Positions 1 through 63,652 of a stretch of 64,000 nucleotides of DNA are shown piece after piece. The position numbers and the translations under genes are program-made. The first letter of the stretch is position 1. Each line of letters begins with the position of its first letter. The stretch lies in NCBI RefSeq assembly GCF_053078305.1, contig NZ_CP166879.1. The stretch is one strand, 5' to 3'. The notes under the pieces are model-generated. The model ran no database searches, was not told the DNA's origin, and worked only from the letters and a program-made list of their open reading frames with translations.

Positions 1-251
1 ATATCAGCGAAGTTTCCCGCGTGATGGAAAACCTGCTGCTGGAATCGGCGGATAAACTGCTGCGTTACAAAGGGATGCTGTGGATTGACGGCGAACCTAA
101 CCGCCTGCTGTTCCAGGGCGTCCAGCGCCTCTACAGCGCCGACTGGGACCGCCCGTGGGGCGATGAAAAACCGCATAGCACGATGGTGTTTATCGGGATT
201 CAGTTGCCGGAGGAAGAGATTCGGGCGGCGTTTGCGGGGTTGAGGAAGTAA
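1..251 (+). CDS. yjiA: C-terminal part of a CobW/YjiA-family GTPase; 5' end lies outside the window
   Basis: Reading frame is open from position 3 to the stop at 249-251. The C-terminal sequence (…GEPNRLLFQGVQRLYSADWDRPWGDEKPHSTMVFIGIQLPEEEIRAAF) matches my recollection of E. coli YjiA. Confidence 0.6.
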   Translation, partial: ISEVSRVMENLLLESADKLLRYKGMLWIDGEPNRLLFQGVQRLYSADWDRPWGDEKPHSTMVFIGIQLPEEEIRAAFAGLRK

Positions 252-284: not shown

Positions 285-587
285 TTATTTTTTGTTCTGA
301 TCGCGCAGCATCGCTTCACGTAAAATTGCGTTCAGGCGAGTTTGATAGCCTTTACCTGGTCGCTTCAACCATTCCATCACATCAGCATCAATACGCACCG
401 AAGCCTGAGTTTTCAATGGCCGATAAAACTTACCACGTTCGGCGTTAGACCATTGCTCATCGCTGGAAGGTGGGATATCACTGTAATCAATATCTTCGTC
501 GGATTTATTCGCCAGCGCCTTCAGTTCGGCCTCATGCTGCACATCGAGTGTAGAGGGTGCCCCTCGTTTATGTTTAACCATGCTCAT
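285..587 (-). CDS. BrnA-like antitoxin (RHH/DUF4415 type) of a BrnT/BrnA toxin-antitoxin pair
   Basis: About 100 aa from the internal Met (MSMVKHKRG…). The C-terminal motif RIDADVMEWLKRPGKGYQTRLNAILREAM is BrnA-like. The start overlaps the 3' end of the upstream toxin gene, as is usual for TA operons. Confidence 0.6.
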   Translation of the reverse strand: MSMVKHKRGAPSTLDVQHEAELKALANKSDEDIDYSDIPPSSDEQWSNAERGKFYRPLKTQASVRIDADVMEWLKRPGKGYQTRLNAILREAMLRDQNKK

Positions 588-855
588 AGCGACTCCTCTC
601 TTTACGATCTGCTTTTCGTGCACTGATGATTCGAATAATTTCATTTCCGCTTTCGAAACGGATGGTATGCGCAACCAGAATAACCACGATACCGTGAACC
701 AAGCCGATAGTCTGCCAGCGATACTCACCGTTTTCTATGCGATCTTGCTGTGACAAATGTTGTGGATCATCAAACACTAACACCGCATCTTCAAAGCGGA
801 TGCCATGTTTCACCCGATTACTTTTGGCCTTGTTTGCATCCCATTCAAACTCCAT
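574..855 (-). CDS. BrnT-like toxin (DUF497 ribonuclease toxin)
   Basis: 93 aa from MEFEWDANKAKSNRVKHGIRFEDA… with the characteristic RIISARKA motif. It sits upstream of and overlaps the BrnA-like gene. Confidence 0.65.
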   Translation of the reverse strand: MEFEWDANKAKSNRVKHGIRFEDAVLVFDDPQHLSQQDRIENGEYRWQTIGLVHGIVVILVAHTIRFESGNEIIRIISARKADRKERSRYEHG

Positions 856-1057
856 TGGCATAGTTGCCATCCCTAATTGTATATACAAAAATGTATCTAC
901 AATTATTCTGCAATTATAGCGTTGATGTTGGAAATAGCATCACGTTTTGGATAATCAACCATGAAATTGACAATGAGTAAGTTGGACTTGATTCATCCAA
1001 TAGAATTTCTCGCCTGACATGGCACACTAAACACCTCGCTGTCGTTAAGGGATTACC

Positions 1058-2224
1058 GTGAAAAACTATAAAGTTATTACCCCGCTTTTTCCTACCTATG
1101 CACAGGTTAAAGCTATGATGAAAGCCGTCTCAGGCTATTCCCTGAAAGCGGTACGCAATATGATTACCGCCATTCACGAGCAAACCGGTACGCCGCAAAA
1201 ACCCGTTGACTGGTCGGAACCCGACTTGTGGATCAGCGAGCGCTTAACGGGTGAAGATGCCGACATCGCCCGTCGTATTTGGGATACCGATAATCACATA
1301 TTGAACCCGCGCCACAGCTACGGCTGCTACTTATTCCTCAACTATCCCCAGTTTGAGCTGATGGAAAGCACTCCAGATGATACCTGGCAGCCCACCTCGC
1401 GCGGGCAAAAATTCCTGCAAGATGACGAAAAAACGCTGCGTTCACTGGACGACCAGGAAGGAATTCTGCAACTGCTTGAGCTGCTGGCTGGCCGGGAAAT
1501 GTCGCGCCGCGCCGATTTACTGCCGGAATGGCAGGCCTTTTTGCATCAGCATTCCAAATTCGCTTCCGACCGGTCAGCCAAAAGTACGCTCTACTCCCGT
1601 CTCTATAACCTTATCGACCGCGACATGGTTACTCGCGAAGGCATGAGCTATCGCATCACCGATACCGGGCGCGCCTGGCTTGGAAAAGCGTTGCCAGCAC
1701 GAAAAAGCGATCCGCGTAAAGAGCTGCTGGAAGCGGTGAAACGCTACAACGAGCAGCAAAAAGAGCTGCTGCGCGAACAAATCAGCACAATGAACCCGTA
1801 CAAATTTGAACAACTGGTCGGTCAATTACTGGAAGCAATGGGCTACGAGCAGGTCGAAGTGACCAAAGCCTCAGGCGATAAAGGCGTGGACGTGATTGGT
1901 CAGGTGCAGGTCGGCATCACCACTATTACCGAAGTGGTGCAGGTCAAAAGAATGCAGAACACCATCACTCGACCGTATATCGACCAGTTGCGCGGAGCGT
2001 TACCTTACCACAAGGCCATTCGCGGTACGCTTATCACCACCGGGAAATTTGCGGCGAAATGTGCAGAAGCGGCGCTCTTTCCGGGGGCAGCGCCCATTAC
2101 GCTTATCGACGGCGATCGCTTACTGGAACTGTTAATCGAAAATAACGTCGGCATTCGCCGCAGCAATGCAGTGGAATTGCTGGATGTGGATTTGCAGTTG
2201 TTTGATGAGCTGGAGATGGATTAA
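1058..2224 (+). CDS. Mrr-family (type IV, modification-dependent) restriction endonuclease, long form with N-terminal winged-helix region
   Basis: 388-aa ORF with a GTG start. The C-terminal ~150 aa have an Mrr catalytic (PD-(D/E)XK) signature (…GDKGVDVIGQ…EVVQVKR…). It is not the 304-aa K-12 Mrr sequence as I remember it, and it lies 63 bp upstream of hsdM on the same strand. Confidence 0.6.
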   Translation: MKNYKVITPLFPTYAQVKAMMKAVSGYSLKAVRNMITAIHEQTGTPQKPVDWSEPDLWISERLTGEDADIARRIWDTDNHILNPRHSYGCYLFLNYPQFELMESTPDDTWQPTSRGQKFLQDDEKTLRSLDDQEGILQLLELLAGREMSRRADLLPEWQAFLHQHSKFASDRSAKSTLYSRLYNLIDRDMVTREGMSYRITDTGRAWLGKALPARKSDPRKELLEAVKRYNEQQKELLREQISTMNPYKFEQLVGQLLEAMGYEQVEVTKASGDKGVDVIGQVQVGITTITEVVQVKRMQNTITRPYIDQLRGALPYHKAIRGTLITTGKFAAKCAEAALFPGAAPITLIDGDRLLELLIENNVGIRRSNAVELLDVDLQLFDELEMD

Positions 2225-2287: not shown

Positions 2288-3903
2288 ATGGCCAAAGCAC
2301 CAACTAAAAAAGCCAAAGCAAAGAAAGGCTTTGAAGAAACATTATGGGATACCGCAAACCAGCTTCGCGGTAGCGTTGAGTCCTCCGAATACAAGCACGT
2401 GGTGTTGAGCCTCGTATTCCTGAAATTCATCAGCGATAAGTTTGAAGCACGCCGCAAAAAAATGATTGCCGATGGGCAAGCAGACTTCCTTGAGATGGAA
2501 GTGTTCTACCAGCAGGACAACATTTTCTACCTGCCGGAAGAGGCGCGCTGGTCGTTTATCAAACAAAATGCCAAACAGGACGATATTGCGGTTCGTATTG
2601 ACACCGCCCTCTCGACCATTGAGAAACGTAACCCAACCCTGAAAGGCGCGCTGCCAGACAACTACTTCAGCCGTCAGAATCTGGAAACCAAAAAACTGGC
2701 GTCACTGATTGATACCATCGACAACATCGAAACGCTGGCACACGAAACTGACGTTGAAACGTTGTCGAAAGAAGACCTGGTCGGACGCGTTTACGAATAC
2801 TTCCTCGGTAAGTTTGCCGCAACCGAAGGCAAAGGCGGTGGAGAGTTCTACACGCCCAAATGTGTGGTCACGCTGTTAACTGAAATGCTCGAACCCTTCC
2901 AGGGCAAAATTTATGACCCGTGCTGCGGCTCGGCAGGGATGTTCGTGCAGTCGGTGAAGTTCGTCGAGAGCCATCAGGGTAAAAGCCGTGATATCGCGCT
3001 GTATGGTCAGGAACTGACACGACGTATAAACTGGCAAAAATGAACCTCGCCATTCGCGGTCTTTCAGCTAACCTCGGCGAACGACCGGCAGACACCTTCT
3101 TTAGCGACCAGCACCCGGACCTGAAAGCCGACTACATTCTGGCGAACCCGCCGTTCAACCTGAAAGACTGGCGTAATGAAGCCGAATTAACCAAAGACCC
3201 ACGTTTTTCCGGTTATCGTATGCCGCCAACCGGTAACGCCAACTACGGCTGGATTTTGCATATGCTCTCCAAGCTGTCGGCTAACGGTACAGCAGGTTTT
3301 GTGCTGGCAAACGGTTCGATGAGTTCTAACACCAGCGGTGAAGGCGAGATCCGTGCACAGATGATCGAAAATGATCTGATCGACTGCATGATTGCTCTGC
3401 CAGGTCAGTTGTTTTACACCACGCAGATCCCGGTGTGTTTATGGTTTATGACCAAATCGAAGGCTGCCGATCCGGCCAAAGGTTATCGTGATCGTCAGGG
3501 CGAGACGCTGTTTATTGATGCGCGTAACCTCGGCACCATGATTAGCCGCACAACTAAAGAATTAACGGCGGAAGATATTGCCACAATCGCCGATACCTAC
3601 CATGCCTGGCGCAGTACGCCAGAAGAACTGGCTGCACGGATTGCGCGTGGTGACAGCAAGCTGGAAAAATATGAAGACCAGGCAGGCTTCTGCAAAGTTG
3701 CGACCCTGCAAGATATTAAAGATAACGACTACGTGCTGACGCCGGGCCGCTATGTGGGTGCAGCCGAGCAGGAAGAAGACGGCGTGGCATTTGAGACCAA
3801 AATGCGTGAATTGTCGAAGACGTTGTTTGAGCAGATGAAGCAGGCGGAAGAACTGGATCGTGCGATTCGCCAGAATCTGGAGGCGCTGGGTTATGGGGAG
3901 TAA
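2288..3903 (+). pseudogene. hsdM: Type I R-M DNA methyltransferase subunit HsdM, interrupted by a frameshift around 3011-3043
   Basis: Two adjacent ORFs (2288-3043 and 3040-3903) carry the N-terminal HsdM region with the AdoMet motif DPCCGSAGMF and the catalytic NPPF motif respectively. The frame changes inside …[20 protein letters not shown]…, consistent with a single-nucleotide indel. This may be a real mutation or a sequencing error. Confidence 0.7.
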
Positions 3904-5293
3904 AATTACACTCGCTGAAATATGTACAGATATTTCATATGGATATACAGCAAGCGCAACTGCGAAACCTGTTGGTCCTAAATTTCTCCGTATAACAGAT
4001 ATACAAGGAGGCAAGGTCAATTGGGAAAATGTACCTTATTGTGAAATAGATGAGAAAGACTCTTTAAAGTATTTATTGCAAGATGGTGATATCGTAATCG
4101 CAAGAACCGGAAACAGTACTGGCGAAAACTTTATATTTAGCTCAAATACAAAAGTAGTATTTGCATCATACCTAATTCGGTTCCGTATTGATCCAAAGAA
4201 AGCAAATCCCAAATTTATTTGGCTTCAAATGAGAACACCTCAATGGTGGAGTTTTATTGATTCCGTAAAAACTGGCTCAGCCCAAGCTGGAGCTAATGCA
4301 AAGGTTTTGGGACTGTATGAGGTTGAATTACCCGAAAGAAAAATTCAAGACCACATTGCTGATATTGGATTTAATTTACTAAAAAAACAGGATATTAACT
4401 CCAAAATAAACCAAACCCTGGAACAAATGTCCCAAACCCTGTTCAAATCCTGGTTTGTGGATTTTGATCCAGTGATTGATAACGCTCTGGATGCAGGAAA
4501 TCCAATCCCGGAAGCCCTGCAAACTCGCACCAAATTGCGTCAAAAAGTACGTAATAGTGCAGATTTTAAACCACTTCCGGCGGAAATCCGCTCGCTTTTC
4601 CCAAGTGAATTTGAAGAAACGGAGTTGGGTTGGGTACCTAAAGGTTGGGATGTCGTAAAAACTGAAGATATTGCTATAAAAATTGGCATGGGGCCGTTTG
4701 GTTCAAATATTAAAGCATCACAATTTGTTAGTAGCGGTATCCCAATCATTAATGGCCAACAACTTAAAGGGCTTATTTTAGAAAAAAATTTTATCAACTA
4801 TATTACTGATGAGCATGCAAATATTCTCAAGAATTCATTAGTATATGAACACGACATTGTGCTAACTCATCGTGGCACACTTGGTCAAGTTTCATTAATA
4901 CCAAAAAGAAAGGGAAATGAAAAATTTGTAATCTCTCAGAGCCAATTCTACTTAAGAGTTGATAGGAAAAAATGTTCACCTTTTTATATGATACATTTTT
5001 TAAAATCTAGAATTGGTCAGGAAGCATTACTCTCCAATGCTTCTCAGGTGGGGGTTCCTTCTATAGCTCGTCCATCAACCCATTTAAAAAAAATAACTTT
5101 CATAAACCCACCATTATCACTGCATAAACTCTTTGACAATGAATTTGAAGTGATACTAGAAAAAATCATGAATTGCAAAGAGCAGTCACTGGCCCTAACC
5201 GCACTCCGCGACACCCTGCTCCCGAAACTCATCTCCGGTGAGCTATCCCTGGAAGATCTTCCGGATCTCACCACCGATACAGAAGCCGCATAA
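3893..5293 (+). CDS. hsdS: Type I R-M specificity subunit HsdS
   Basis: The start ATG at 3893 overlaps the hsdM stop (ATGGGGAGTAA). The two-target-recognition-domain layout is typical of HsdS. The middle of the gene is AT-rich, as expected for variable recognition domains. Confidence 0.7.
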
Positions 5294-5387
5294 CGCATTT
5301 TGCCCCTGTAAAATCAGGGGCTTTCTGGTAAGGTTTTCTACTGATACAGGAATGCTTACCAGAAATTAGCCAGGGTTGGAGCGCGAT

Positions 5388-8300
5388 ATGAGTCTCTCTT
5401 TCAGTGAAGCAAAATTAGAACAAGCGATCATTGAACTGCTACAGGATCAGGGATATCAACACCTGATCGGCGATAATGTCCCACGTTCGAGTCTCGATCA
5501 GGTCATTATCGAAGACGATCTCCGTCATTATTTAGCGGCACGCTACCAGCCTGATGGCATTACTGAAGAAGAGATTCAGCGACTGATCAAACAGTTCACC
5601 ACGCTTCCGGCCTCCGACCTTTATGAAAGCAACAAAACATTTTGTCGCTGGCTGGCAAATGGTTTTCTGTTCAAACGCGACGATCGGCAACAAAAAGATC
5701 TCTATATTGAATTGCTCGACACCCGGCATCTACCTGCCGCACTGCGCCAGATATTTGACGCCGAAGATGTCCCGTTGCAACAGGCGGCGGAACTCCCGCC
5801 TTCCTATATGAATCCGCCGCTTAACCGGATTAAGATTGTTAACCAGCTTAAAATCTCCGGCAAAGATAATCAGACTCGTATTCCTGACGGCATTCTCTAT
5901 ATCAATGGTCTGCCATTGGTCGTCTTTGAATTTAAAAGTGCGGTGCGCGAGCAGGAAGCCAGTATTGGCGATGCCTGGAAGCAGCTCTGTAAACGCTATC
6001 GCCGGGATATTCCGCAACTGTTTATCTACAACACGCTCTGCATTATTAGCGATGGCGTAAATAACCGGATGGGCAACCTGTTTGCGCCCTATGAATACTT
6101 TTACTCATGGCGCAAAGTCACCGGTAATGAAAACCGTGAACAGGACGGAATTCCATCATTGCACTCAATGATTCAGGGGCTGTTTCATCCGGTACGTCTG
6201 CTGGATGTGATTAAAAACTTTATCTGCTTCCCGGATAAAGCCAAGCACGAAGTAAAAATTTGCTGCCGATATCCGCAGTACTATGCCGCCCGCAAACTCT
6301 ATTACAGCATCAAGCAAGCGCGTAAACCTTTCGGTAGCGGTAAAGGCGGCACCTACTTTGGCGCAACGGGCTGTGGCAAAAGTTACACCATGCAATTTTT
6401 AACGCGTCTTTTGATGAAGAGCGTGGAGTTTGCCAGCCCGACCATTGTTTTGATCACCGACCGCACCGATCTGGACGATCAGCTTTCTGCGCAAATGTGC
6501 AACGCCAAAAATTACATTGGCGACGACACCATCGTTCCTGTTACCAGCCGTGAAGATTTGCGTAATCAACTGGCGGGACGCAATAGTGGCGGTGTATTCC
6601 TGACAACGATCCATAAATTCACCGAAGACACCGAACTCCTTTCTGAACGCAGCAATATCATTTGCATCTCGGACGAAGCACATCGCAGCCAGGTTAACCT
6701 CGACCAGAAAGTCATCGTCGATAAAGAAAGCGGAAAAGTACGCAAAACGTATGGCTTTGCAAAATACCTGCACGATTCACTGCCAAACGCCACCTATGTT
6801 GGCTTTACCGGCACACCGATTGACGCGACGCTCGATGTCTTCGGTGAGGTGATCGACAGTTACACCATGACCGAATCCGTTCAGGATGAAATCACTGTAC
6901 GCATCGTGTACGAAGGCCGTGCGGCTAAAGTGATCCTGGACTCCAGCAAACTGGAAGAAGTCGAAAAGTATTACGAAGAGTGCGCAAACGCAGGCACCAA
7001 TGAGTGGCAAATCGACGAAAGCAAAAAAGCCACCGCAACCATGAATGCGGTACTGGGTGATGAAGATCGGTTAAAAGCCCTCGCGGAAGATTTTGCCAAA
7101 CATTATGAAAAACGCGTAGCCGAAGGTTCCACCGTAAAAGGCAAAGCCATGTTTGTTTGTGCCAGCCGTGAAATTGCCTGGGATTTCTACCGTCAGCTTA
7201 AAGCTATTCGCCCTGCCTGGTTTGAAGTGAAGCAAGCACCCGATGGCGTCGTCCTGACGGAACAGGAACAAAAAGAGTTACCGCCTTCTGAAATGGTGAA
7301 GATGGTCATGACGCGCGGTAAAGATGACGACGAGGCGCTTTATGATTTACTGGGCACAAAAGAATATCGTAAAGAGCTGGATAAGCAATTCAAAAACGCT
7401 AAATCGAATTTCAAAATTGCCATTGTTGTTGATATGTGGCTGACCGGTTTCGACGTCCCGGAACTGGATACCATCTATATTGATAAACCCTTACAAAAAC
7501 ATAATCTTATCCAGACCATTTCTCGCGTTAACCGTAAACTGGAAGGCAAAAGTAAAGGGTTAGTGGTGGACTACATCGGCATTAAAAGCCAGATGAACCA
7601 GGCACTGGCAATGTATTCCCGCATTGATGCCACCAACTTTGAAGATATTCAGCAATCGGTAATAGAAGTTAAAAACCATCTCGATTTGTTGGGGCAAGTC
7701 TTTTACGAATTTGACAGTCGGGATTATTTTAGTGGTGAGCCACAAGCGCAATTATCCTGCCTCAACCGCGCGGCGGAATTTGTTCTGCGTACCCAGAAAG
7801 TTGAACGTCGTTTTATGGGACTGGTTAAACGCATGAAAGCCGCCTACGACGTCTGCTGCGGCAGCGAAGCATTATCACAGACAGAACGTGACTATATTCA
7901 CTATTATCTTGCTGTTCGTTCAATTGTTTTCAAACTGACGAAAGGTGACGCACCGGATGTTACCCAGATGAATGCACGCGTTCGTGAAATGATTGCAGAA
8001 GCGTTAAAAGCTGATGGCGTAGAAGAAATTTATTTTCTTGGGGATAAAAAAGCGGAATCCATCGATATTTTTGACGAAGATTATCTGGCGCGAATTAACA
8101 AAATCAAACTTCCGGCAACAAAGATCCAGTTATTACAAAAATTACTGGAAAAAGCGATCAGCGACTTCAAGAAAGTGAACCAGTTACAAGGGATTAACTT
8201 CACCCGCCGCTTCCAGGCGATTATAGATCGTTATAATGAGCGGCGAGAAGATGATGTACTCAACGGTGAAGAATTCGATACATTCAGTCAGGAAATGACC

Positions 8301-8651
8301 GATATTATCTATGATATTAAAACCGAAATGGGCACCTGGGCCGATTTAGGTATTGATATTGAAGAAAAAGCGTTTTTCGACATTCTTGCTCATATGCGCG
8401 ATAAATATCAGTTCACCTATGACGATGAAAAAATGCTGTCACTGGCAAAAGAGATGAAAAGCGTGGTTGACAACACATCGAAATATCCTGACTGGAGTAA
8501 ACGCGATGATATTAAAGCGAAACTGAAAGTTGAACTTATTCTGCTTCTACACAAGCATAAGTTCCCGCCAGTAGCGAATGATGATGTTTATATGGGTGTG
8601 CTGGCACAGGCAGAGAATTTTAAAGAACACCATATGAATGCTTTAAATTAA
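5388..8651 (+). CDS. hsdR: Type I R-M restriction subunit HsdR (SF2 helicase/nuclease)
   Basis: About 1087 aa with helicase motifs GATGCGKS (Walker A), DEAH (ICISDEAHRSQ), GFTGTP and LTGFDVP…ISRVNR. The ATG at 5388 has a GGAG ribosome-binding site 6 nt upstream; the ORF list used an upstream TTG. Confidence 0.75.
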   Translation: MSLSFSEAKLEQAIIELLQDQGYQHLIGDNVPRSSLDQVIIEDDLRHYLAARYQPDGITEEEIQRLIKQFTTLPASDLYESNKTFCRWLANGFLFKRDDRQQKDLYIELLDTRHLPAALRQIFDAEDVPLQQAAELPPSYMNPPLNRIKIVNQLKISGKDNQTRIPDGILYINGLPLVVFEFKSAVREQEASIGDAWKQLCKRYRRDIPQLFIYNTLCIISDGVNNRMGNLFAPYEYFYSWRKVTGNENREQDGIPSLHSMIQGLFHPVRLLDVIKNFICFPDKAKHEVKICCRYPQYYAARKLYYSIKQARKPFGSGKGGTYFGATGCGKSYTMQFLTRLLMKSVEFASPTIVLITDRTDLDDQLSAQMCNAKNYIGDDTIVPVTSREDLRNQLAGRNSGGVFLTTIHKFTEDTELLSERSNIICISDEAHRSQVNLDQKVIVDKESGKVRKTYGFAKYLHDSLPNATYVGFTGTPIDATLDVFGEVIDSYTMTESVQDEITVRIVYEGRAAKVILDSSKLEEVEKYYEECANAGTNEWQIDESKKATATMNAVLGDEDRLKALAEDFAKHYEKRVAEGSTVKGKAMFVCASREIAWDFYRQLKAIRPAWFEVKQAPDGVVLTEQEQKELPPSEMVKMVMTRGKDDDEALYDLLGTKEYRKELDKQFKNAKSNFKIAIVVDMWLTGFDVPELDTIYIDKPLQKHNLIQTISRVNRKLEGKSKGLVVDYIGIKSQMNQALAMYSRIDATNFEDIQQSVIEVKNHLDLLGQVFYEFDSRDYFSGEPQAQLSCLNRAAEFVLRTQKVERRFMGLVKRMKAAYDVCCGSEALSQTERDYIHYYLAVRSIVFKLTKGDAPDVTQMNARVREMIAEALKADGVEEIYFLGDKKAESIDIFDEDYLARINKIKLPATKIQLLQKLLEKAISDFKKVNQLQGINFTRRFQAIIDRYNERREDDVLNGEEFDTFSQEMTDIIYDIKTEMGTWADLGIDIEEKAFFDILAHMRDKYQFTYDDEKMLSLAKEMKSVVDNTSKYPDWSKRDDIKAKLKVELILLLHKHKFPPVANDDVYMGVLAQAENFKEHHMNALN

Positions 8652-8794: not shown

Positions 8795-8871
8795 AGCGCG
8801 GTGCGGATGTGCGCCAACACACCCGCACCGCTAATCACAATCACTATTTATAGGGAATAGCAGTTATGACT
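8795..8871 (-). ncRNA. symR: Probable SymR antisense sRNA covering the symE ribosome-binding site and start codon (boundaries approximate)
   Basis: On the minus strand inside the 5' end of symE there is a sigma70-like promoter (TTCTGC-N17-TAGAAT) that would start transcription about 3-6 nt inside symE and read antisense across its RBS. This matches the known SymR arrangement. Confidence 0.4.
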
Positions 8872-9204
8872 GATACGCATTCTATTGCACAACCGTTCGA
8901 AGCAGAAGTCTCCCCGGCAAATAACCGTCAATTAACCGTGAGTTATGCGAGCCGCTACCCGGATTACAGCCGTATTCCCGCCATCACCCTGAAAGGTCAG
9001 TGGCTGGAAGCCGCCGGTTTTGCCACTGGCACGGCGGTAGATGTCAAAGTGATGGAAGGCTGTATTGTCCTCACCGCCCAACCACCCGCCATCGAAGAGA
9101 GCGAACTGATGCAGTCGCTGCGAAAGGTGTGCAAGCTATCGGTGCGTAAACAAAAGCAGGTGCAGGAATTTATTGGGGTGATTAGTAGCAAAACGCCACG
9201 CTAA
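8866..9204 (+). CDS. symE: SymE, SOS-induced type I toxin (AbrB-fold)
   Basis: 112-aa [55 protein letters not shown]… that I recognise as SymE (YjiW). Confidence 0.8.
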
Positions 9205-52767: not shown

Positions 52768-53418
52768 TTAATTTGATTTATTCGCATCCATCAACGCTTT
52801 TAACTCCTCCGGCGTAAACGGTGGTTTGCGTCGGTGCAACATCGCATGGCAATTAGGGCACACAGGAAGTAAATCATTAACTGGATCCAGCAGGTAATCC
52901 TCTTTAATGGCTGAAAGCGGCACCAGGTGATGCATATGGATAAAGCCCTCAGCGATATCGCCATAGATCTTCACCAGATCAACGCCGCATACGTTGCACT
53001 GGCATCCGTGATATTCGACTGCTTTCTCGCGAGCTTTTTTATCGCGTTCATAGCTGTTTACCGTCACCTTTATCGCCGCACCTTCAACGTAGGTCCCCTG
53101 CGACGGCAACTCATCCGGGAACAGAACATCGGCTATGGGAGCCGCAGCGGCTTTATCCTGATGAATATGAAATCCCTGATCTATAAGTAGCTTGACGCAT
53201 TTAGATTTTATTCCGCCGGTGAAATCCGCAGGGGTAAATTGCGTCCCCGTCATCAATGTCGCTGCGATGCCAGCAATCGCCTTCGAGGGGTAACGTCGGC
53301 CATGATATTCAATCTCATACAACCGTGCAGGCTGGAACTGATGAGTTTCTCCCGCATCCCATAAATGAATAGCTTTGATGATATACCGCCGAGGAAGATG
53401 ATCGGGGAGTTTATTCAT
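52768..53418 (-). CDS. HNH-endonuclease-domain protein (possible modification-dependent restriction nuclease)
   Basis: 216 aa with a C-terminal HNH/zinc-finger signature CQCNVCG…HMHHLVP…N…CPNCH. The N-terminal domain is unidentified. Confidence 0.55.
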   Translation of the reverse strand: MNKLPDHLPRRYIIKAIHLWDAGETHQFQPARLYEIEYHGRRYPSKAIAGIAATLMTGTQFTPADFTGGIKSKCVKLLIDQGFHIHQDKAAAAPIADVLFPDELPSQGTYVEGAAIKVTVNSYERDKKAREKAVEYHGCQCNVCGVDLVKIYGDIAEGFIHMHHLVPLSAIKEDYLLDPVNDLLPVCPNCHAMLHRRKPPFTPEELKALMDANKSN

Positions 53419-53497
53419 GGAGAATGTCCTTATACGTTCTCAGAACAAGCAGCAAAAAAACAAATGAGATCAAAGTAATATATCTTCACTTGCAGGC

Positions 53498-54427
53498 TTG
53501 AACAGCAGAAAATTTGCGAGCATGATCGCAATTATTTCACTGCCAGGGATATCAATGGCTTCCAGTAAATCGCTACAGCAGGCAATTGCCAATATAAAAA
53601 TCTGGCATAAGGGTGAACAGCGCGCGCCGCATAAGCCATTGTTATTGCTATACGTATTAGCGGGATACCTGCATGGACATCCGCGCCTTTTCGATTATGG
53701 CTCGGAAATCTACGAACCTCTGCACAGTTTACTGGAACGTTTTGGGCCACAGCGTTCACAGTACCGACCTGATATGCCGTTCTGGCGATTACAAGGCGAC
53801 GGATTCTGGCAATTACACAATGCCGAGCGTTGCTCAACAGCAGGGAGCAGCCGACAACCGCCAGTGAAGGAACTGAACGAATACCACGTTGCAGGCGGTT
53901 TCGATGAACAGCACTACGCCCTGGTAACCGGCAATAAAAAACTCATCAATACTCTGGCGCAACAGATACTCGAAGCGCACTTCACCGAGAGTATTCAGGA
54001 AGAAATTGCTGACGAGCTGGGTTTTGATCTCCAGCAAATCCGTAAACAGCGCGACCCGTTATTTCGCAAAAATGTATTACGCGCTTATAAATACCAGTGC
54101 GCGATATGTGGCTTTAATATGCGCCACGACGACACCACCGTCGCGCTGGAAGCGGCGCATATAAAATGGAAACAGCACGGCGGTCCTTGTGAAATTCCTA
54201 ATGGCCTGGCGCTTTGCGCAATTCACCATAAAGCCTTTGATAAAGGATCGATTGGCCTGGACGAAAATATGCGGGTACTGGTATCAGATGCGGTAAACGG
54301 CGGAGGGATCGTTGAGAGATTATTCTGGGATTTTGACGGGAAAACTATTGCGTTGCCGCAGGTGCGTAAAAATTACCCTTATGAGGGGTTTGTGGAGTGG
54401 CATCGGAAAGAGGTTTTTAGGGGGTGA
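53498..54427 (+). CDS. HNH-endonuclease-domain protein (second copy, divergent)
   Basis: 309 aa with a C-terminal HNH signature YQCAICGF…AAHIKW…NGLALCAIHHKAFDKG. The N-terminal domain is unidentified. Confidence 0.55.
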   Translation: MNSRKFASMIAIISLPGISMASSKSLQQAIANIKIWHKGEQRAPHKPLLLLYVLAGYLHGHPRLFDYGSEIYEPLHSLLERFGPQRSQYRPDMPFWRLQGDGFWQLHNAERCSTAGSSRQPPVKELNEYHVAGGFDEQHYALVTGNKKLINTLAQQILEAHFTESIQEEIADELGFDLQQIRKQRDPLFRKNVLRAYKYQCAICGFNMRHDDTTVALEAAHIKWKQHGGPCEIPNGLALCAIHHKAFDKGSIGLDENMRVLVSDAVNGGGIVERLFWDFDGKTIALPQVRKNYPYEGFVEWHRKEVFRG

Positions 54428-55049: not shown

Positions 55050-57320
55050 CTAATCATTTCCCTTACGAATATATGGGCCAAAAGCCCAAGAATCATAATA
55101 AGGGTGATGGACTAGTTTTTCATTAAATCGAACACTATAAGTTAATTTTTTTATATTTTTACGTACAGCATTAATACTGGGCAAAGAGGAAAGATAATCT
55201 ATAAACTTATCGATAGTGATTTCCCCTTCGCAACACTCAAACCCATCAATGATATTTTTCGCCATTTTTCCATTTTCATTTGTTTGATATATCACTCCAG
55301 GTATTCGTTGAAAAAAACTAGATAATGCATATTTGTCCGCTACATATGTATCATCCACATGATATTTCCCACCGAGCATAGTTGTAGTAACAATAAGCTT
55401 ATACACACCTTTGGGTTGCCATGTTGATGGTAGTTCGAATTCTTTAATGATCACATCAAGATGATTAAGATAATGTTCAGAAATTCGATTTATTTGTTGA
55501 AAATAAGAACGCATAAATTTATTATTATGATCATGTATTAATGAGCTATCTCCAACGATGTTACACACTTGCTGATAGTACTTACCATAATATATTGGTT
55601 GACCATTTGATTTTAGTTCTGTAAAAATCAAACAATCATCCAGGAGAATCACGCAATCGCACTGATAATTAGCATGAGCATCAATTGGAGAAGCTTTAAT
55701 CCCCGCATCACGAACTTGTTTTATAAATTGTTGCTCATGAAATCGCCCTTTACTTGCTTGAGAAATTTTTTTGGAACCAAATAATGACATTAGAGAGCGA
55801 GTCACTGAGCTATTTGCTATTAATGCAGGCATTAAGCATAAACCGTCCATACAGGGAATAAATGGGCAATCATTAAGATCATGTGATTTTGAATTGAAGG
55901 TAAAATAATCTATCAGTTTTTTTGCTGCATCTGCTGCAATCCCCTTACGTTGAAAGAATGATAACCAACTCTCACGGCTTTTTATGATCAGCCAGCGATC
56001 CAACTGTAGGGGTATAGGTTTTGTCGATGAAAATCTTTTGCTCATTTCTTCTTTAGATAACTCGACTAAACATTGATAAGCGTGCACCCAATTAAATAAT
56101 GATATATTCCCATATTCTTCATGAAGGTCATCAGGAGATATATTTTCCAACTCGCTTAGATGAAATGAGCTAAAAACGCCATCAGAATTTAAGTAAGATG
56201 GCATATGATCCTTTACCCAACTATTTAGATGAAAATGTTTGTTACTAAATTCATGAACTTCGCTATATAGATGTGACGCTCTCATCATTAGTCTATTTCT
56301 TGCAATCTCATAATCTCGGTATAAACAAAAACTATCAACCTCAAGAGAGTAAATGTTATTATCCAATTTTGTAAATACTGCACTACTTAGTCTGAAAAAG
56401 TCTCTTACTCTGCTTAATGAGTCAAAAACATTCCACTCATTAAGGTACCCTCCCATTGAAAGCAAGGTTTGTTTATTCACACAAGAAGTTAGTTTCAATG
56501 GCTCATGAGTCCGTAAATAAGAAAATATTCGTCCGGTGTAATTGGCTACCTCATCAAATGCCCTATCGATAACTCGAAAATATTCGATATCAGGTTCAGC
56601 ATGAATATTAATATTTTCAGAAACGATTACTCTGCTTAATGAGTCAAAAACATTCCACTCATTAAGGTACCCTCCCATTGAAAGCAAGGTTTGTTTATTC
56701 ACACAAGAAGTTAGTTTCAATGGCTCATGAGTCCGTAAATAAGAAAATATTCGTCCGGTGTAATTGGCTACCTCATCAAATGCCCTATCGATAACTCGAA
56801 AATATTCGATATCAGGTTCAGCATGAATATTAATATTTTCAGAAACGATAAATAATGGAAAAATCCTCTTCATTTTTTTAGGATCATTGACCACAACCAA
56901 GGATGATAATGATGATAAAAACATCTCACAAAACATGATGAGATTAAGTATTAATGCATGTGATTTTTTTGTATTTTTACGCCAAATACCAGCACATTTT
57001 GTAGCCGCAAAGAAAGAATTATTTATATCATGCATAATTTTACATTGACTCTCGAACTCAGAAATTAGTTCAATGTTATCAGGAAATGAGTTTACTAGCT
57101 CATTAATACATTTTTTGAATGTATTGTTATACTCAACTTCAGTCTGAACTGAAAATCTATTATAATAGATGGAAGATATTCTCAGCACATCCAAGGCGAT
57201 ATCTATACTAATATCATCTCTTTTTATGTACTCACAAAAAAAAGAACAAAACTGTTTCGGGTCGTTAGCAAGATTACTAATTCTAGTGGTATCATAAACT
57301 TTTTCCATTTTTCCATACAT
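55050..57320 (-). CDS. Large low-GC hypothetical protein (756 aa) with an internal 74-aa perfect tandem duplication
   Basis: Long minus-strand ORF with its own AT-rich upstream region and no recognisable family by eye. A possible PD-(D/E)XK-like motif (CDCVILLDD…TELK) lies in the C-terminal third. Confidence 0.5.
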   Translation of the reverse strand: MYGKMEKVYDTTRISNLANDPKQFCSFFCEYIKRDDISIDIALDVLRISSIYYNRFSVQTEVEYNNTFKKCINELVNSFPDNIELISEFESQCKIMHDINNSFFAATKCAGIWRKNTKKSHALILNLIMFCEMFLSSLSSLVVVNDPKKMKRIFPLFIVSENINIHAEPDIEYFRVIDRAFDEVANYTGRIFSYLRTHEPLKLTSCVNKQTLLSMGGYLNEWNVFDSLSRVIVSENINIHAEPDIEYFRVIDRAFDEVANYTGRIFSYLRTHEPLKLTSCVNKQTLLSMGGYLNEWNVFDSLSRVRDFFRLSSAVFTKLDNNIYSLEVDSFCLYRDYEIARNRLMMRASHLYSEVHEFSNKHFHLNSWVKDHMPSYLNSDGVFSSFHLSELENISPDDLHEEYGNISLFNWVHAYQCLVELSKEEMSKRFSSTKPIPLQLDRWLIIKSRESWLSFFQRKGIAADAAKKLIDYFTFNSKSHDLNDCPFIPCMDGLCLMPALIANSSVTRSLMSLFGSKKISQASKGRFHEQQFIKQVRDAGIKASPIDAHANYQCDCVILLDDCLIFTELKSNGQPIYYGKYYQQVCNIVGDSSLIHDHNNKFMRSYFQQINRISEHYLNHLDVIIKEFELPSTWQPKGVYKLIVTTTMLGGKYHVDDTYVADKYALSSFFQRIPGVIYQTNENGKMAKNIIDGFECCEGEITIDKFIDYLSSLPSINAVRKNIKKLTYSVRFNEKLVHHPYYDSWAFGPYIRKGND
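56405..56849 (-). repeat. Perfect 222-bp direct tandem duplication, in frame, inside the 756-aa ORF
   Basis: The two adjacent 222-bp copies are identical by eye and encode …SENINIHAEPDIEYFRVIDRAF…NEWNVFDSLSRV twice. Confidence 0.85.
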
Positions 57321-57975
57321 CCTATTGTCTAAATTACTATAAAACTAGCCACTTAACTAATAATTATAAATTTCATCTTTTACACCTTGCATTTTTATAA
57401 CCAATGAAATCTACAACAAGCAACTGATGGATAATCCGATATTGGTCGCATTTAATGGCATGGTAGCAAAGTTTTCATCACATACCTCCTTTGCACCAGA
57501 ATAAACGCCAGAGATCTGAAATTGCGAGTACACTACAGAAATTGTACTGCTGGTCCCATCAGCATAAAACCATAGTTACACAGGTAATCATCATTATTCG
57601 CCAAGATAATAAATATTATTCGGTAGAATAGCGTTCTCAGGTGGTCAGTAAAATTGTCTTCAACAAGATGTCTGCGCATCTCGTCTGCTAGCCCTACATA
57701 ACTGCTCTCGACCGAAACTATTTATTGAATGTTCACCAAGGTGGGCGTGGAGACAAAATGACGTCTTTTGATATTAGCTACCTGAGCCACATGGTCAAAA
57801 CGTTCAAGTAGCATAGCGAAACCACCCTGCCCACGTAATGTGGACGATGCAGCTTCCAGCCAGAGCAAACTTGGGACCATCGACTACAAAATGAAGAATA
57901 CTGAACTGCTTTTCTGGCAGGCCTATATACTGCACGGATATGGGTGATTTCAGACACAAAAAAAGCCGCCCTTGA

Positions 57976-57998
57976 GCGACTCGATTTGCATACGGTGT
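57976..57998 (-). repeat. att-site remnant: partial copy of a tRNA-Leu (leuX-like) 3' end
   Basis: The minus strand reads GTTCGAGTCCGGCCTTCGCACCA (T-arm, acceptor stem, CCA) with one base missing relative to leuX as I recall it. There is no upstream tRNA body, so this is not a functional tRNA. Confidence 0.5.
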
Positions 57999-58285
57999 GG
58001 TGCGAAGGCCGGACTCGAACATTTAATTAAACAACTGTATTTAAATAGTTTTTGTATTTAAAAATGAATTGATGCCCCTTTTTGTGCCCCCATTACCAAA
58101 ATAACAACCTAACCTTGTACTAAAAAAGAGATTTTTCAATGTAGGCACTCTGGTTCGGCTACGCTTACCGGAGACGAACCTGAACATAAGAAATCTGAGA
58201 TAACTTCATAGTAATCATCTTTAACACTTTTGACCAATAATATCTATCATAAAGGCAGAGAAATTAATCTCTGCCTTTATTAAGG

Positions 58286-59154
58286 TCACATAAAAAGATT
58301 ATTAATTAGAGTACACTGTTGACATCCATTAATATCTACAGCTTTTAAAAAATCTGTGTTACTAATCAAAACAGCATTACTAACACCTGAAAACTGCAGC
58401 TGTGCATACATACCTAAGATAGATTTTTTTTCGTAATACTGAGATCTTCCTGTATAACTTTCACCAGTATTAGAACTTATAAATCGCCTCGTTCTTTCTT
58501 GTATCAATAAATTATTTTTAAGGAAGCTCAAAATATCTTGCTGCAATTGTTTGTTTTTGTTATGAAAATAACATAACAATTGATCCTCTAAGGTACCAAG
58601 CTGAGTGTTAACGTCATGAAAAATATACCCCCCCATTCACTCCCATTAAACTCAATAATACTTCCATTGGAGAGTTGAGTAGTATCTTCTAAACCTATCT
58701 CATTTTTAATCTCTGTTATTCTGGCATCAATGCCAAGTTCATCAGCATCAAAAAAATATAAAAATCTATATGCAATTTCTATACTGAAGTCATCTGTACC
58801 AGAAAGTTCTTTATACATAGTGACTAACTCAGCCCTTTCACGACTTCTGCCATCACCATTTAGATTATGTATAAAAATTAAGTTCCCGTTATGATAGAAA
58901 CAAACAGAAGGTAGTTTTGGCCCGTTTGGCTGAAAGCCAAGTTTTTTATCTGGAATTCTTACTTGACTTAGTTCTTTTTCAAAGCGTTTATCAAACGGTG
59001 GAGGTAATTGACCAATTTTAAGATCTTGAAGTTGGAATCCATTAACTAAAAGAATTCTGCTAAGAAAAGCGACGTCATGCTGTCCTTCACAAAAGGCAAC
59101 TATGACTCTATTATAAGATACACTCACAATTTTAGCCTCTAATATCAAGATCAA
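58286..59154 (-). pseudogene. Toprim-like (OLD/AriB-like) gene split by a frameshift at a G7 tract
   Basis: ORFs 58588-59154 and 58286-58636 overlap across a C7/G7 homopolymer (58628-58634). The N-terminus has VAFCEGQHD and a later FFDADELG (Glu … DxD), suggestive of a Toprim fold. Fusing the frames gives an approximately 300-aa protein. Confidence 0.45.
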
Positions 59155-61369
59155 TATTTTTTATCAAATAGCCAAATCTTTCGCCATCAGCCCTTTTCAC
59201 TACTACTTTATCGTCAACTTTGCTTAACTGAAATCCAGTAATGCAATCATTATTATAATCATTATTTAAAAAAGCTCTGATACATTCACCCGAATGTGAC
59301 GTAAGGAACACTTGCACATTGAAACGTTCTGCAAGTTGTTGCGTAAATTTAGTAAACTCCAATAGTAAACTATAATGAATCGCAGTTTCAAATTCATCAA
59401 TAAAAAGTACACCGTTACGACATGCAGCAAAAGATAAAGCTATATAAAAGATGCGCTGAATACCCTCTCCATAAGAAGTAAGATCGAAACTTCTGTTAAA
59501 ATCATATGCTGATTCTACGATAAACCTTTTGAGCTCCATGTCTTCAGTAAATCTGACATCTTTTATCGTTGGCTCAATTTTATTCATGAATTCAATAACA
59601 AGGCCGATAGCGGATTGTATATTTAAATCATCTGATTCTGAGTCAGTTACAGACGTTAAATTTGCACCTATACTTTTGTTATAATCAGTGAGCAAATCGT
59701 CTATATCGTAGAAATAAGGGCTTTTAAATGACGATGAACACAAATGCGAAACTTGATCAGCGTTCCTTCTCATACGTTCATGGATAAAAGTATGGACTGT
59801 GTTATTTCTAAATTCTCCATCAATGCTAGACTTTAAGCTATAAGATGCTATATAGTCATCTTGTTTATCAATTGAAGAATCATCATATTTAATCATTTCA
59901 ACAGTAACATTACTATCATCAAATACTCCTGACAAGATTATTTTATCTTGGAAAAGAGCATTTAGCAATGTTGGACTCAAAGTACTGATTTTATTTTTTT
60001 GCCTAATAAGATTAAAATGCGATGAAATATCATTACGCTGCGTCAATAAGTAAATTGCTTCAAGCAATGAAGTTTTTCCAGCATTATTAAAGCCAGCAAT
60101 GATATTAATCTTATTGAAATTATCCAATGAGAAGTTTTTAAAGAATTTATATTTTTTGATATAAATGGATTTAAAATGTTTTTTTACTCCATACTCAAAA
60201 TTAGTTGTATAGTTTCCTCCTTCGATATTTATAGCCATCTGCTTTGGCATTATTTGTGTTAGTTTTTCTTTTGCATCATCTAATAAGCGCAAATCCTCTT
60301 GGTTTATGAGGCTACTATATAGATTTAAATCCTTTAAGGCGTCTTCAAGCTTGCTTAAAGCATTTTTATAGTTTTGCTGATTTACTGAACCGCTCGCAGC
60401 TAATCCTCTTGCAAGGCTACGTTCATCCTCCATTACCTTCAAGGCTTTTTCATTATTGATGAACAAAGCAAGATCTCGTATCTCAAGAGATTTAGTAATT
60501 ATAGGTTCTAGCTCAACGTATTCACCATTACTTTCCTCTTCAATATCATCTTCTAGCTCATTTTTCTCAAGGTATTCATCTGTTTTAGAGATCCACGAAA
60601 AAAGCCTATCAAGATTCACTAAATTTCTAGCATAATAACCGTTATCACTCCAGTCTAACCAAGATTTAATTACAGGCTTTTTGATTATTTCTTCAAAAAT
60701 ACCAAACATACTTGGTTCGAATTGCTCACCATACTCACTTGTTTTATATAAGGAAATTAGATTATAAACTCTAAGCATAGAGCGAAGACGCGTTTTAGAA
60801 ATACCGAGCGAACTAACTAGCTCATCTTCTTTTTCAACATACTCATCTCGAGTTTTGTCTTCATATGGTTTTAAAAAATCATAAAGCAGTTTGGACTGAT
60901 TATATGTTGACCACTTTTTATTACCACTTATATGCTTTAATCCCATTACAATCAGATGTTTTTCAACATCTTGATTATTATGGATTTCGAAAGGAACACT
61001 TCTAAAAATAGATGGATCTAGTTTTCCAATATCAAACCCCTTTTCATATGCTTCTTGCAATGCTTTCAGCGCCGTTACACGACGATTTCCCTCAAGGACT
61101 AAATAATTGTTATCTCCTAAATCCTTTACTTGAATAACATCAACATCTAAGTATCCATTAGATTTAAAACTTGCTATTAGATCTTTGATATTCTCTTGTC
61201 TATTTCCTTCTATAAAAAAGCGAGTCCTACGCTGAATTGTTGGATCTAGCATGTCCTTTTCTGAGACTGGCTTGTGCTGGTCATTGTCAACAAAACGGTA
61301 GTTATTAGGATCTAGAAATAAATTTTTTAAATTTTTGCTAATGCGCGGGCGAATTTGCTCGACATTCAT
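59132..61369 (-). CDS. Fusion of an N-terminal ParB/Srx-like domain with a C-terminal ABC-type (SMC/RecF/OLD-like) ATPase
   Basis: 745 aa. ParB box LVLEGNRRVTALKAL near the N-terminus; Walker A GFNNAGKTS, Walker B LFIDEFE and H-loop LTSHS in the C-terminal half. Low GC. Confidence 0.6.
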   Translation of the reverse strand: MNVEQIRPRISKNLKNLFLDPNNYRFVDNDQHKPVSEKDMLDPTIQRRTRFFIEGNRQENIKDLIASFKSNGYLDVDVIQVKDLGDNNYLVLEGNRRVTALKALQEAYEKGFDIGKLDPSIFRSVPFEIHNNQDVEKHLIVMGLKHISGNKKWSTYNQSKLLYDFLKPYEDKTRDEYVEKEDELVSSLGISKTRLRSMLRVYNLISLYKTSEYGEQFEPSMFGIFEEIIKKPVIKSWLDWSDNGYYARNLVNLDRLFSWISKTDEYLEKNELEDDIEEESNGEYVELEPIITKSLEIRDLALFINNEKALKVMEDERSLARGLAASGSVNQQNYKNALSKLEDALKDLNLYSSLINQEDLRLLDDAKEKLTQIMPKQMAINIEGGNYTTNFEYGVKKHFKSIYIKKYKFFKNFSLDNFNKINIIAGFNNAGKTSLLEAIYLLTQRNDISSHFNLIRQKNKISTLSPTLLNALFQDKIILSGVFDDSNVTVEMIKYDDSSIDKQDDYIASYSLKSSIDGEFRNNTVHTFIHERMRRNADQVSHLCSSSFKSPYFYDIDDLLTDYNKSIGANLTSVTDSESDDLNIQSAIGLVIEFMNKIEPTIKDVRFTEDMELKRFIVESAYDFNRSFDLTSYGEGIQRIFYIALSFAACRNGVLFIDEFETAIHYSLLLEFTKFTQQLAERFNVQVFLTSHSGECIRAFLNNDYNNDCITGFQLSKVDDKVVVKRADGERFGYLIKNIDLDIRG

Positions 61370-61630
61370 ATGTCACCTCAATGGTGTAGGAACTATACAA
61401 TGCAACTTTACTTGATACCTCAGCAATCAACAACTTCATGTTTTTGAAACTAAGCGCGCGCAGCCCCGCACGCCTGCCCGCTTCGCTTAACAGACTGGTT
61501 TTCATGCACCTCATAAATCGTCTCAGAAGCCACCAAACAAGGGTTTTCTCGTCAAAAATGGTGCATAAGACTCATGCGTTTTCATGCGCCATAGACATGC
61601 ACTCATTCGCTCTCATGCCAGCCAGGAAAA

Positions 61631-61662
61631 GGGGATAAAAAATCCCGGTACTGGACCGGGAT
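61631..61662 (-). terminator. Intrinsic terminator after the ogr/delta gene
   Basis: The minus strand reads ATCCCGGTCCAGTACCGGGAT followed by TTTTTAT, 21 nt after the stop. Confidence 0.55.
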
Positions 61663-61682
61663 TACGTGGGCGTTCTTTCTAA

Positions 61683-61964
61683 TCAGACAGGAATCTGCTG
61701 ACGGCTTGACAGTTTTGACGCGGAGCCATAGCGATTAAGTGTTTGCTGTTGTTTTTCCGGGGATTGTGCTTTGTCTGATAGCTGTTCATTGCGTCGGGGT
61801 TTCATGATTATCTTATCCACACTCTCCAGTGCCGTAAATGTGCAGGAACATTCCAGATTCTGGCACTGATACCACGAGCGTTTAACTGACGGAGCTTCAT
61901 AGGCTGCTGTTCTGGCGTGTGCAACTGTACCGCATTCCGGACATTTAAGTGCCATTAATATCAC
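61683..61964 (-). CDS. Ogr/Delta-family zinc-finger late-gene activator
   Basis: 93 aa with a CPECG…HARTA…YQCQNLECSCTF four-cysteine motif, like P2 Ogr and P4 Delta. Confidence 0.8.
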   Translation of the reverse strand: MILMALKCPECGTVAHARTAAYEAPSVKRSWYQCQNLECSCTFTALESVDKIIMKPRRNEQLSDKAQSPEKQQQTLNRYGSASKLSSRQQIPV

Positions 61965-62512
61965 TCCTGTATATCGTTAATGTCATTCAGGCGTTGCTGA
62001 AAACGCAGATGTTGTGCCGGGGTGTAAGAGCCCTGGCAATCACGAATCATCCCGGGGTCAGGCATCAAACCGGATTCATCCAGGATCTCACGATAATCCC
62101 CGGCAATTTCAGGCGGTGTTATTGTCAGCTGGCGAACCAGAGCACTGCGTAATATACGGGACGCAACGTCAACCCCTCCGCGCCCCTTCAGGAACGGAGC
62201 CAGTGCAGATGTCAGGGCTGCCCCATTCGCCTGCATAAAATTGCTGAGAGCGGCTTCTGTGCAGGCTTCCATCAGTAAATGCTGCGAGTAAATGCATTCG
62301 CGCGCAGCACAGTTAATTTGCCATTTCAGCACATCCAGACGTTCCCGCAGTAATTCGAGCTGTCGGGCATAATCTGCTGGTTTTTCTGTGGCAGCGAGGA
62401 GAGATGCTATCTGTTGTTCAACGGCTTTTCGGCTCTCACTATGTCCGGCCCACAGAATACGGGCATTCCGAAAACTGGTAAGTGCCTGGTCAGGCGTGCC
62501 TCGGGCCGTCAT
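61961..62512 (-). CDS. Psu-like (polarity suppression / capsid decoration) protein, tentative
   Basis: 183 aa, helical composition, size close to P4 Psu (about 190 aa). Operon position is between the sid-like and ogr-like genes. Confidence 0.5.
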   Translation of the reverse strand: MTARGTPDQALTSFRNARILWAGHSESRKAVEQQIASLLAATEKPADYARQLELLRERLDVLKWQINCAARECIYSQHLLMEACTEAALSNFMQANGAALTSALAPFLKGRGGVDVASRILRSALVRQLTITPPEIAGDYREILDESGLMPDPGMIRDCQGSYTPAQHLRFQQRLNDINDIQE

Positions 62513-63252
62513 ACTGCTTTCTCCTTCTCAGCAAGTTCCTGACGAACCTTAATTTTATGCATAGCTGCCGGAGAGAGTTGATTACTGAAATCCAGACGCG
62601 CCGCATAATCCGGGGCAATTCCCGCCAGTTTAAACACCGGGTCCTGTTCAGGCATCGCATCGTTAGCCAGAGCCGGTCTGGTGATATGTTTATGAATAAA
62701 GTCTTTCAGCACTGTGTCCGGGTCATTAACTGAATTCACCACACCCACAACGGCACTGGCTTCCCGGCCCATTGTGGATTTAAGCAGGCTCAGCGTCTGA
62801 ATAAGCGCTTTTCCATGCGATTGCATAAAATCTTCCCAGATTTGTTTTGCGCGAATATCCACAAGAATGTTATGCGCGTGGATATACTTTCCGGCTAATT
62901 CCGCAGCTTTCTGCGGCAAAAGTGCATTTTCGCTTTCCTGAGCCGCCAGCAGCTCATCAAAATCCTCAAGCGTTTCTCGTCCCAGCGCAATTTCCGTGCG
63001 CAGTTTTTTCATTTCCTTTGAAACCACGCCCTGACTTTCACGAAACAGCGTGCGCCACTCCTCATTCAGTGTGTTCGTCGTGGCTTCCATCTCAGCGCGA
63101 CGCTGGCGGATTGTCGCAATATTATCCGCTGCCGCTTTCTGCTGACGACGTGCTTCAAGCCATGCGTTTCTGGCTGTGTTCATGGTTTCCAGTGCCCGCT
63201 GCGTTACAGCCGGAAAAGTGGAAAGGTTGTTATTCACTGCGGTGTTGTTCAT
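62509..63252 (-). CDS. Sid-like capsid size-determination protein, tentative
   Basis: 247 aa (P4 Sid is about 244 aa), first gene of the operon, with an AGGAG ribosome-binding site before the ATG at 63252 and TGT-N12-ACA dyads upstream. Confidence 0.5.
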   Translation of the reverse strand: MNNTAVNNNLSTFPAVTQRALETMNTARNAWLEARRQQKAAADNIATIRQRRAEMEATTNTLNEEWRTLFRESQGVVSKEMKKLRTEIALGRETLEDFDELLAAQESENALLPQKAAELAGKYIHAHNILVDIRAKQIWEDFMQSHGKALIQTLSLLKSTMGREASAVVGVVNSVNDPDTVLKDFIHKHITRPALANDAMPEQDPVFKLAGIAPDYAARLDFSNQLSPAAMHKIKVRQELAEKEKAV

Positions 63253-63276
63253 GGCTTCTCCTGTCGGGTTGGTTCG

Positions 63277-63332
63277 TTACGTCAATTGTGTCGTGGCTGA
63301 CACAAGCACACTATCGGTGCTCAGTGTGTGGT
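63277..63332 (-). promoter_or_regulatory. Two TGT-N12-ACA dyads (candidate Ogr/Delta activator sites) upstream of sid
   Basis: TTGTGTCGTGGCTGACACAA (63276-63295) and TGTGTGGTGGCTGGCACA (63315-63332), about 38 bp apart. Confidence 0.45.
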
Positions 63333-63430
63333 GGCTGGCACAACGGGCGCTTGCGGTTATTCAGACGTGGCTATGAAAGCCAGCCAGATAAAAATGCCCT
63401 CAGTTTCAGTCTGCTTTATGTCCCTGATGC

Positions 63431-63619: not shown

Positions 63620-63652
63620 GTTACCCTTAATAAATAAGACTCACGCAAAGCC

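Follow-up and report, generated by a model that had tools for sequence, protein, structure and literature searches.

The stretch of DNA analysed here, a window of 64,000 nucleotides, starts in the immigration control region of E. coli, where the genes follow one another in the order yjiA - brnTA - mrr-like - hsdM - hsdS - hsdR - symE - yjiS. The 3' end of yjiA (21..251) is followed by brnA/brnT on the minus strand (285..861) and, directly upstream of hsdM, by a full-length gene on the plus strand for an Mrr-like (type IV) restriction endonuclease (1058..2224; PDC-S02 / mREase_IV, Mrr_cat). The hsdM pseudogene (2288..3903, plus strand), which is the subject of this work, is succeeded by hsdS and hsdR, and symE (8866..9204), yjiS and yjiR complete the locus.

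Both neighbours of hsdM in the type I restriction-modification (R-M) operon are intact, as the original prediction had held. The hsdS gene (3893..5293, plus strand), whose first 11 nt are shared with the end of hsdM, is full length at 466 aa, the same length as hsdS of strain TUM13936, from which it differs by 6 nt and 3 aa. NCBIfam S-subunit models match it in two stretches and Pfam Methylase_S is recorded for the exact protein, so that a specificity subunit lies beside hsdM, as in type I R-M systems. The hsdR gene (5388..8651, plus strand; 1087 aa) is likewise full length, with 0 nucleotide differences from hsdR of strain D8. It matches TIGR00348 with 469 bits against a cut-off of 284.55, and HSDR_N, ResIII, SWI2_SNF2 and T1RH-like_C are recorded for an hsdR gene of identical length; the helicase-nuclease subunit of a type I system is therefore also present. 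Between hsdS and hsdR lies a terminator-like hairpin (5302..5321, plus strand), which is a consensus match only, and a promoter and terminator scan of the region returned site counts no higher than in shuffled sequences. We note that, in the set of complete genomes, the hsd locus (2288-8651) is a recombination mosaic: strain D8 has the identical hsdR, but its hsdM differs at 46 sites and its hsdS carries other recognition domains, while the hsdS specificity of the window is common to only one complete genome, that of TUM13936 (99.6%).

The arrangement of an mrr-like gene, hsdM, hsdS and hsdR between yjiA and yjiS is common to Nissle 1917, TUM13936 and D8, and the system thus occupies the allelic location in the immigration control region (yjiA..yjiS). 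Membership of the type ID family is defined by HsdM and HsdR proteins roughly 80-90% or more identical to the prototype, or by subunit complementation; the HsdM of the window is 94% identical to HsdM proteins of Salmonella and Klebsiella. Type IA was ruled out, since the match to EcoKI HsdM reaches only E = 9e-19. Type IB was ruled out as well, because the HsdM of O157 Sakai is only 27% identical and its locus differs in gene order and sizes (hsdR-hsdM-hsdS, with proteins of 810/489/584 aa, against hsdM-hsdS-hsdR in the window); the O157 Sakai system is of type IB, as described in a paper on the CFT073 and O157 systems (PMC2481252). At the immigration control locus only types IA, IB and ID have been reported, with ID at 12% and IC absent, and type ID amounts to 12% and 3% at the two hotspots (PMC12707154); the hsdM family studied here was present in 872 of 5426 complete E. 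coli genomes (16%). By elimination, the system probably belongs to the type ID family (StySBLI / EcoR9I / KpnAI).

Further restriction and defence genes lie elsewhere in the window. A second restriction cluster (52768-54427) adjoins nanM and comprises an HNH / ScoMcrA_N-like gene on the minus strand (52768..53418; 216 aa) and a gene for a phosphorothioated-DNA-binding restriction endonuclease (53498/53555..54427; NF045808, 439 bits). One end of a P4-like satellite prophage, including the start of its primase region, occupies 57859-64000, with ogr/delta at 61683..61955 and two psu genes at 61961..63252. Near its border, at 57998-58020, a fragment matches about 24 nt of the 3' end of a tRNA-Leu with a 1-bp difference; no complete tRNA was found in the 64-kb window by ARAGORN. 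The satellite contains a second disrupted defence gene, PDC-M38B (58286-59127, minus strand), the partner of the AbiL-like ATPase PDC-M38A (59132..61369), which is frameshifted at a G-run (58628-58634). This run is G7 in the window and G8 in all 34 complete E. coli genomes that have the gene; G7 was also found in other public assemblies (at one place together with 13 similar ones, and at a second), and G9 in a further one. The tract is thus hypervariable and may be a phase-variable switch of this candidate defence system. In addition, the ORF at 55050..57320 (minus strand; 756 aa), for which no Pfam, NCBIfam or PADLOC match was found, contains a perfect in-frame tandem duplication of 222 bp, or 74 codons (56405-56848), and its best E. 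coli matches (99.8%) are 678 aa long and do not carry the duplication. Finally, an EspX-like pentapeptide-repeat gene (17826-20000) is longer than its counterpart in strain D8 by 18 bp (three ATAAAG units) and 24 bp, in frame.

A four-base gap in hsdM

Both the ORF listing and the raw sequence reveal hsdM split in two overlapping ORFs, 2288..3043 (251 aa) and 3040..3903 (287 aa), which are the halves of one 539-aa HsdM and which each match the corresponding half of the TIGR00497 hsdM model. Intact hsdM alleles consist of a single ORF of 1620 nt and 539 aa, whereas hsdM of the window measures 1616 nt. Pairwise alignment with hsdM of TUM13936 (98.8% identical) shows 15 substitutions and exactly one gap, of 4 bp; here the intact TUM13936 gene reads ...GAACTGACAGCCACGACG... 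and the window ...GAACTGACACGACG.... Across the junction region, 2960-3080, the form containing the four bases is ...CTGACAGCCACG... and the deleted form ...CTGACACGACG..., and the codons at the junction change from ...CAG GAA CTG ACA GCC ACG ACG TAT... in the intact gene to ...CAG GAA CTG ACA CGA CGT ATA... in the window. The frameshift is a deterministic feature of the sequence, to which a chance expectation does not apply.

The original prediction of a frameshift that leaves the two parts of hsdM in different frames is thus borne out by the ORF listing, the raw sequence and the alignment, and it had correctly placed the lesion within 3011-3043. It had also called for an alignment to intact homologues in order to pinpoint the indel, and this comparison locates a single 4-bp deletion at 3017-3020 (plus strand), the four bases being absent between these two positions. 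The join that had been proposed, YGQELT / TTYKLAKMN, lies at the correct junction but omits Ala245. The deleted bases can be written in three ways, as CAGC, AGCC or GCCA, because the intact sequence is CA-GC-CA, a 2-bp microhomology in which CA stands on both flanks (CAGCCA becomes CA). The context of the deletion, ACAGCCACG, is not a homopolymer, again in agreement with what had been reported for this site, and the nearby A5 run (3036-3040) is the same in intact alleles.

The deletion removes Ala245 and the first base of Thr246. The reading frame of HsdM is kept to Thr244 and then continues out of frame through RRINWQK (3020-3040) to a premature TGA at 3041-3043, the tail and stop together spanning 3020..3043 on the plus strand. 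The N-terminal ORF (2288..3043, plus strand) therefore comprises HsdM residues 1-244, 7 out-of-frame residues and the stop, and it covers TIGR00497 profile positions 3-260 only. The C-terminal ORF (3040..3903, plus strand), which covers profile positions 305-493, encodes HsdM residues 253-539 in the -1 frame. It starts MNLAIRG at the native Met253 codon, whose ATG (3040-3042) overlaps the premature stop (ATGA), and no Shine-Dalgarno-like sequence could be read upstream of this start.

Intact HsdM carries the two domains of a type I modification subunit, namely Pfam HsdM_N at residues 16-144 (PF12161, 4e-24) and the gamma-class N6-adenine methylase domain N6_Mtase at residues 161-499 (PF02384, 1e-105), together with motif I and NPPF. 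In the window, the methylase domain is split at residue 244/245. The AdoMet-binding motif I, DPCCGSAGMF (2915..2944, plus strand), which falls in mostly invariant alignment columns, lies upstream of the break, as does motif II (YGQE). Catalytic motif IV, NPPF (3145..3156, plus strand), with N288, P289, P290 and F291 all invariant, is out of frame with the hsdM start codon because it lies downstream of the break, and ribosomes that begin at the hsdM start no longer translate either this motif or any of the C-terminal 295 residues. The closest solved structure to HsdM is the M subunit 3KHK (E = 1.7e-134), the EcoR124 and EcoKI M proteins being far more distant; an AlphaFold model of intact HsdM, built from a 19-sequence alignment, had a mean pLDDT of 48 and was unusable, and no structural claim made here is based on it.

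Recoding, split-enzyme and switching readings

Overlapping ORFs in different frames, with an A-run beside the stop, recall phase-variable type I genes and genes of the dnaX type, and two routes can be envisaged by which hsdM would still be functional. In the first, recoding, tRNA-Lys would slip by -1 on CAA AAA TGA (3035-3043) and join the two frames. In the second, termination and reinitiation at the ATGA overlap would yield N- and C-terminal halves that reassemble into a split enzyme. The geometry suits both routes: the second ORF is in the -1 frame, the A5 run would allow AAA to pair again one base upstream beside the stop, a slip would place the ATG of Met253 in the A site, and the ATG of the downstream ORF overlaps the stop.

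However, the A5-TGA context is a product of the deletion and not of selection, since the same bases are found in every intact allele. The site offers no X XXY YYZ heptamer, only A AAA beside TGA, and no upstream Shine-Dalgarno-like element, and the downstream RNA folds no better than shuffled sequences (-18.1 kcal/mol, z = +0.51). The features of a programmed -1 frameshift, which are a conserved pair of frames, a slippery heptamer and a stimulatory element, are thus absent from hsdM. The products would also be altered at a conserved place, as RRINWQK would replace ATTYKLAK in the slipped protein and the split enzyme would be without those 8 residues, of which seven (T246-K252) are invariant across 19 aligned sequences ranging from Enterobacterales to Vibrio and Marinomonas.

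Homologues of HsdM point in the same direction. Each of the 120 listed homologues is a single protein of 498-557 aa in which both Pfam domains are present; they come from E. coli, Salmonella, Klebsiella, Xenorhabdus, Vibrio, Aliivibrio and Marinomonas. A naturally split methyltransferase, with intact homologues that normally consist of two ORFs, had been named as the observation that would overturn the prediction; none of the listed homologues is split, and this candidate is excluded. We therefore regard a still functional hsdM, through recoding or as a split enzyme, as very improbable. Rare slippage or reinitiation could at most supply a trickle of near-full-length or two-piece HsdM and leave an attenuated type I system, an outcome that we would hardly expect; if true, it would mean that a deletion had created a spontaneous recoding site.

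Frameshift switching of hsd genes is known from other bacteria, for example at type I loci of Haemophilus and Neisseria, and the deletion could by analogy represent one state of a reversible phase variation driven by a contingency repeat in hsdM. In such loci the frameshift falls in a simple-sequence repeat whose length varies from strain to strain. At hsdM, Tandem Repeats Finder detected no tandem repeat between 2200 and 4000, where the site itself holds only the 2-bp microhomology, and length variation at the position of the deletion occurs in 0 of the 872 E. coli genomes. Unlike phase-variable and dnaX-type genes, hsdM of the window thus has no repeat tract, heptamer or stimulatory structure, and its two-ORF state is not conserved. 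The chance that hsdM is switched in this manner seems to us close to negligible.

Rarity and origin of the deletion

Not one of the 872 complete E. coli genomes that carry the hsdM family has the deletion; the best match to a 121-nt junction query among them is 96.8% identical, which corresponds to exactly the four gap columns. Similarly, a 34-mer across the junction has no hit in 100,044 species-representative genomes or in the metagenome collection. Public gene calls contain neither the exact 251-aa nor the exact 287-aa fragment product, and hence no independent assembly confirms the deletion.

Close relatives of the window carry the intact gene. Three draft E. coli genomes, found via HsdS and via intact HsdM, are separated from the window by only 2-11 SNPs across 6.9-9.3 kb, and all three keep the four bases in an hsdM that is otherwise without difference from that of the window; the pseudogene is therefore identical to the hsdM of these drafts except for the 4-bp gap. 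For the exact intact version of this HsdM allele, 74 blocks of public assemblies are on record, and the exact HsdS protein of the window is present on at least 24 public contigs.

We find no further decay of hsdM. When the four bases are restored, HsdM agrees with 18 homologues at all 315 columns that are invariant among them and has no residue peculiar to itself. Decay following inactivation was considered because identity to the best complete genome is only 98.9% in the 3' half of the gene, against 99.7% in the 5' half, but it was rejected: the differing residues, D270, K304 and S309, are ordinary variants of the family, and the drafts carry the identical allele in intact form. From these comparisons, the deletion is the only fault in hsdM and arose either at the outermost tip of the lineage or during sequencing. 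The best reading of the sequences is a very recent loss-of-function deletion private to one genome.

A lesion private to one genome is, however, also how an error would look, and the organism may have an intact hsdM, with the four bases missing only from the consensus. This explanation draws on the fact that the deletion is private to the present sequence among 872 complete genomes and the near-identical drafts, and that hsdM is otherwise 100% identical to a common intact allele. Moreover, a second frame-breaking indel in the window sits in a G-run. On current platforms, the consensus errors that remain are overwhelmingly indels of 1 bp in homopolymers; the deletion in hsdM, in contrast, takes out 4 bp from a context without repeats, ACAGCCACG, and neither GATC nor CCWGG occurs nearby. 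A deletion of this size in non-repetitive sequence is not known as a typical residual error of any platform. The quality of the assembly around it speaks to the same point. About 50 annotated CDS from D8, LH09-a and ETEC6335 were mapped onto the window, and among them only hsdM and one gene containing a poly-G run are disrupted. The remaining indels comprise the repeat changes in the pentapeptide-repeat gene and in the ORF with the 222-bp duplication, all of which preserve the frame, differences of 1 bp between genes, gaps in the polymorphic fimA that compensate one another, and the one 1-bp change in a G-run (PDC-M38B). The hsdM deletion is thus the only frame-breaking indel outside a homopolymer among the roughly 50 genes checked, and no other non-homopolymer coding indel was found in the 64 kb. 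That the poly-G frameshift signals a poor assembly was rejected, given that the same G7 allele occurs in other, independent assemblies and a G9 allele is also found, as expected of a variable tract and not of sloppy assembly.

The original prediction had called a true mutation and a read error equally likely. We lean towards a genuine mutation rather than an artefact, since the lesion removes 4 bp outside any repeat and is the only frame-breaking indel outside a homopolymer among about 50 genes; an assembly artefact we consider unlikely, although clearly less so than recoding or switching. In sum, it is likely that hsdM was knocked out by a real, recent and private 4-bp deletion and that the strain is r-m- for this system.

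Predicted consequences for restriction and modification

The loss of 4 bp between two CA dinucleotides would be typical of a slippage or microhomology deletion. Translation from the hsdM start leaves the frame after Thr244, just beyond AdoMet motifs I and II, and would produce a truncated HsdM without NPPF, the remainder of the Rossmann-fold domain and the C-terminal part, which is the part that contacts HsdS in characterised type I enzymes.

A type I enzyme has the composition R2M2S1, in which M2S1 is the methylase, and HsdM is required for modification as well as restriction (PMC3874165, PMC12707154). If HsdM is missing, assembly of both the M2S1 methylase and the R2M2S1 nuclease would be expected to fail. 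The strain would then neither methylate nor restrict at the target of the system, and the intact hsdS and hsdR would be stranded. Since established type I biology makes HsdM necessary for both activities, we consider that the strain is most likely r-m- for this specificity, in support of the original prediction. The situation resembles that of the classical hsdM null mutants (r-m-), in which hsdR and hsdS are retained but a frameshift in the modification subunit ends both activities. Since HsdM is needed by the nuclease too, the loss of hsdM should not be lethal. Beyond the effect on HsdM itself, the 850 nt left untranslated may lower the expression of hsdS, either by lost translational coupling or by Rho polarity.

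Several expectations follow for the strain. The type I system of its immigration control region is predicted to be silent, ATP-dependent restriction and methylation at the corresponding bipartite m6A motif are both expected to be missing, and unmodified DNA should be accepted more readily. Because hsdS and hsdR are intact, hsdM supplied in trans in its intact form should restore both activities. For annotation, 2288..3903 should be treated as one pseudogene and not as two genes.

Frameshifted methyltransferase genes are a routine finding in methylome surveys. Disrupted ("decayed") R-M components are tracked in REBASE (PMC3874165). The present case is an ordinary pseudogene, formed by a frameshift in a known type I methylase gene, and a new private allele in one strain. 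The hsdM deletion bears on no open question, and its interest is local, residing in the phenotype of the strain, the annotation of the locus and the example of defence-gene loss that it provides. With one lesion and nothing further, it offers a clean snapshot of the first step in the decay of a defence gene.
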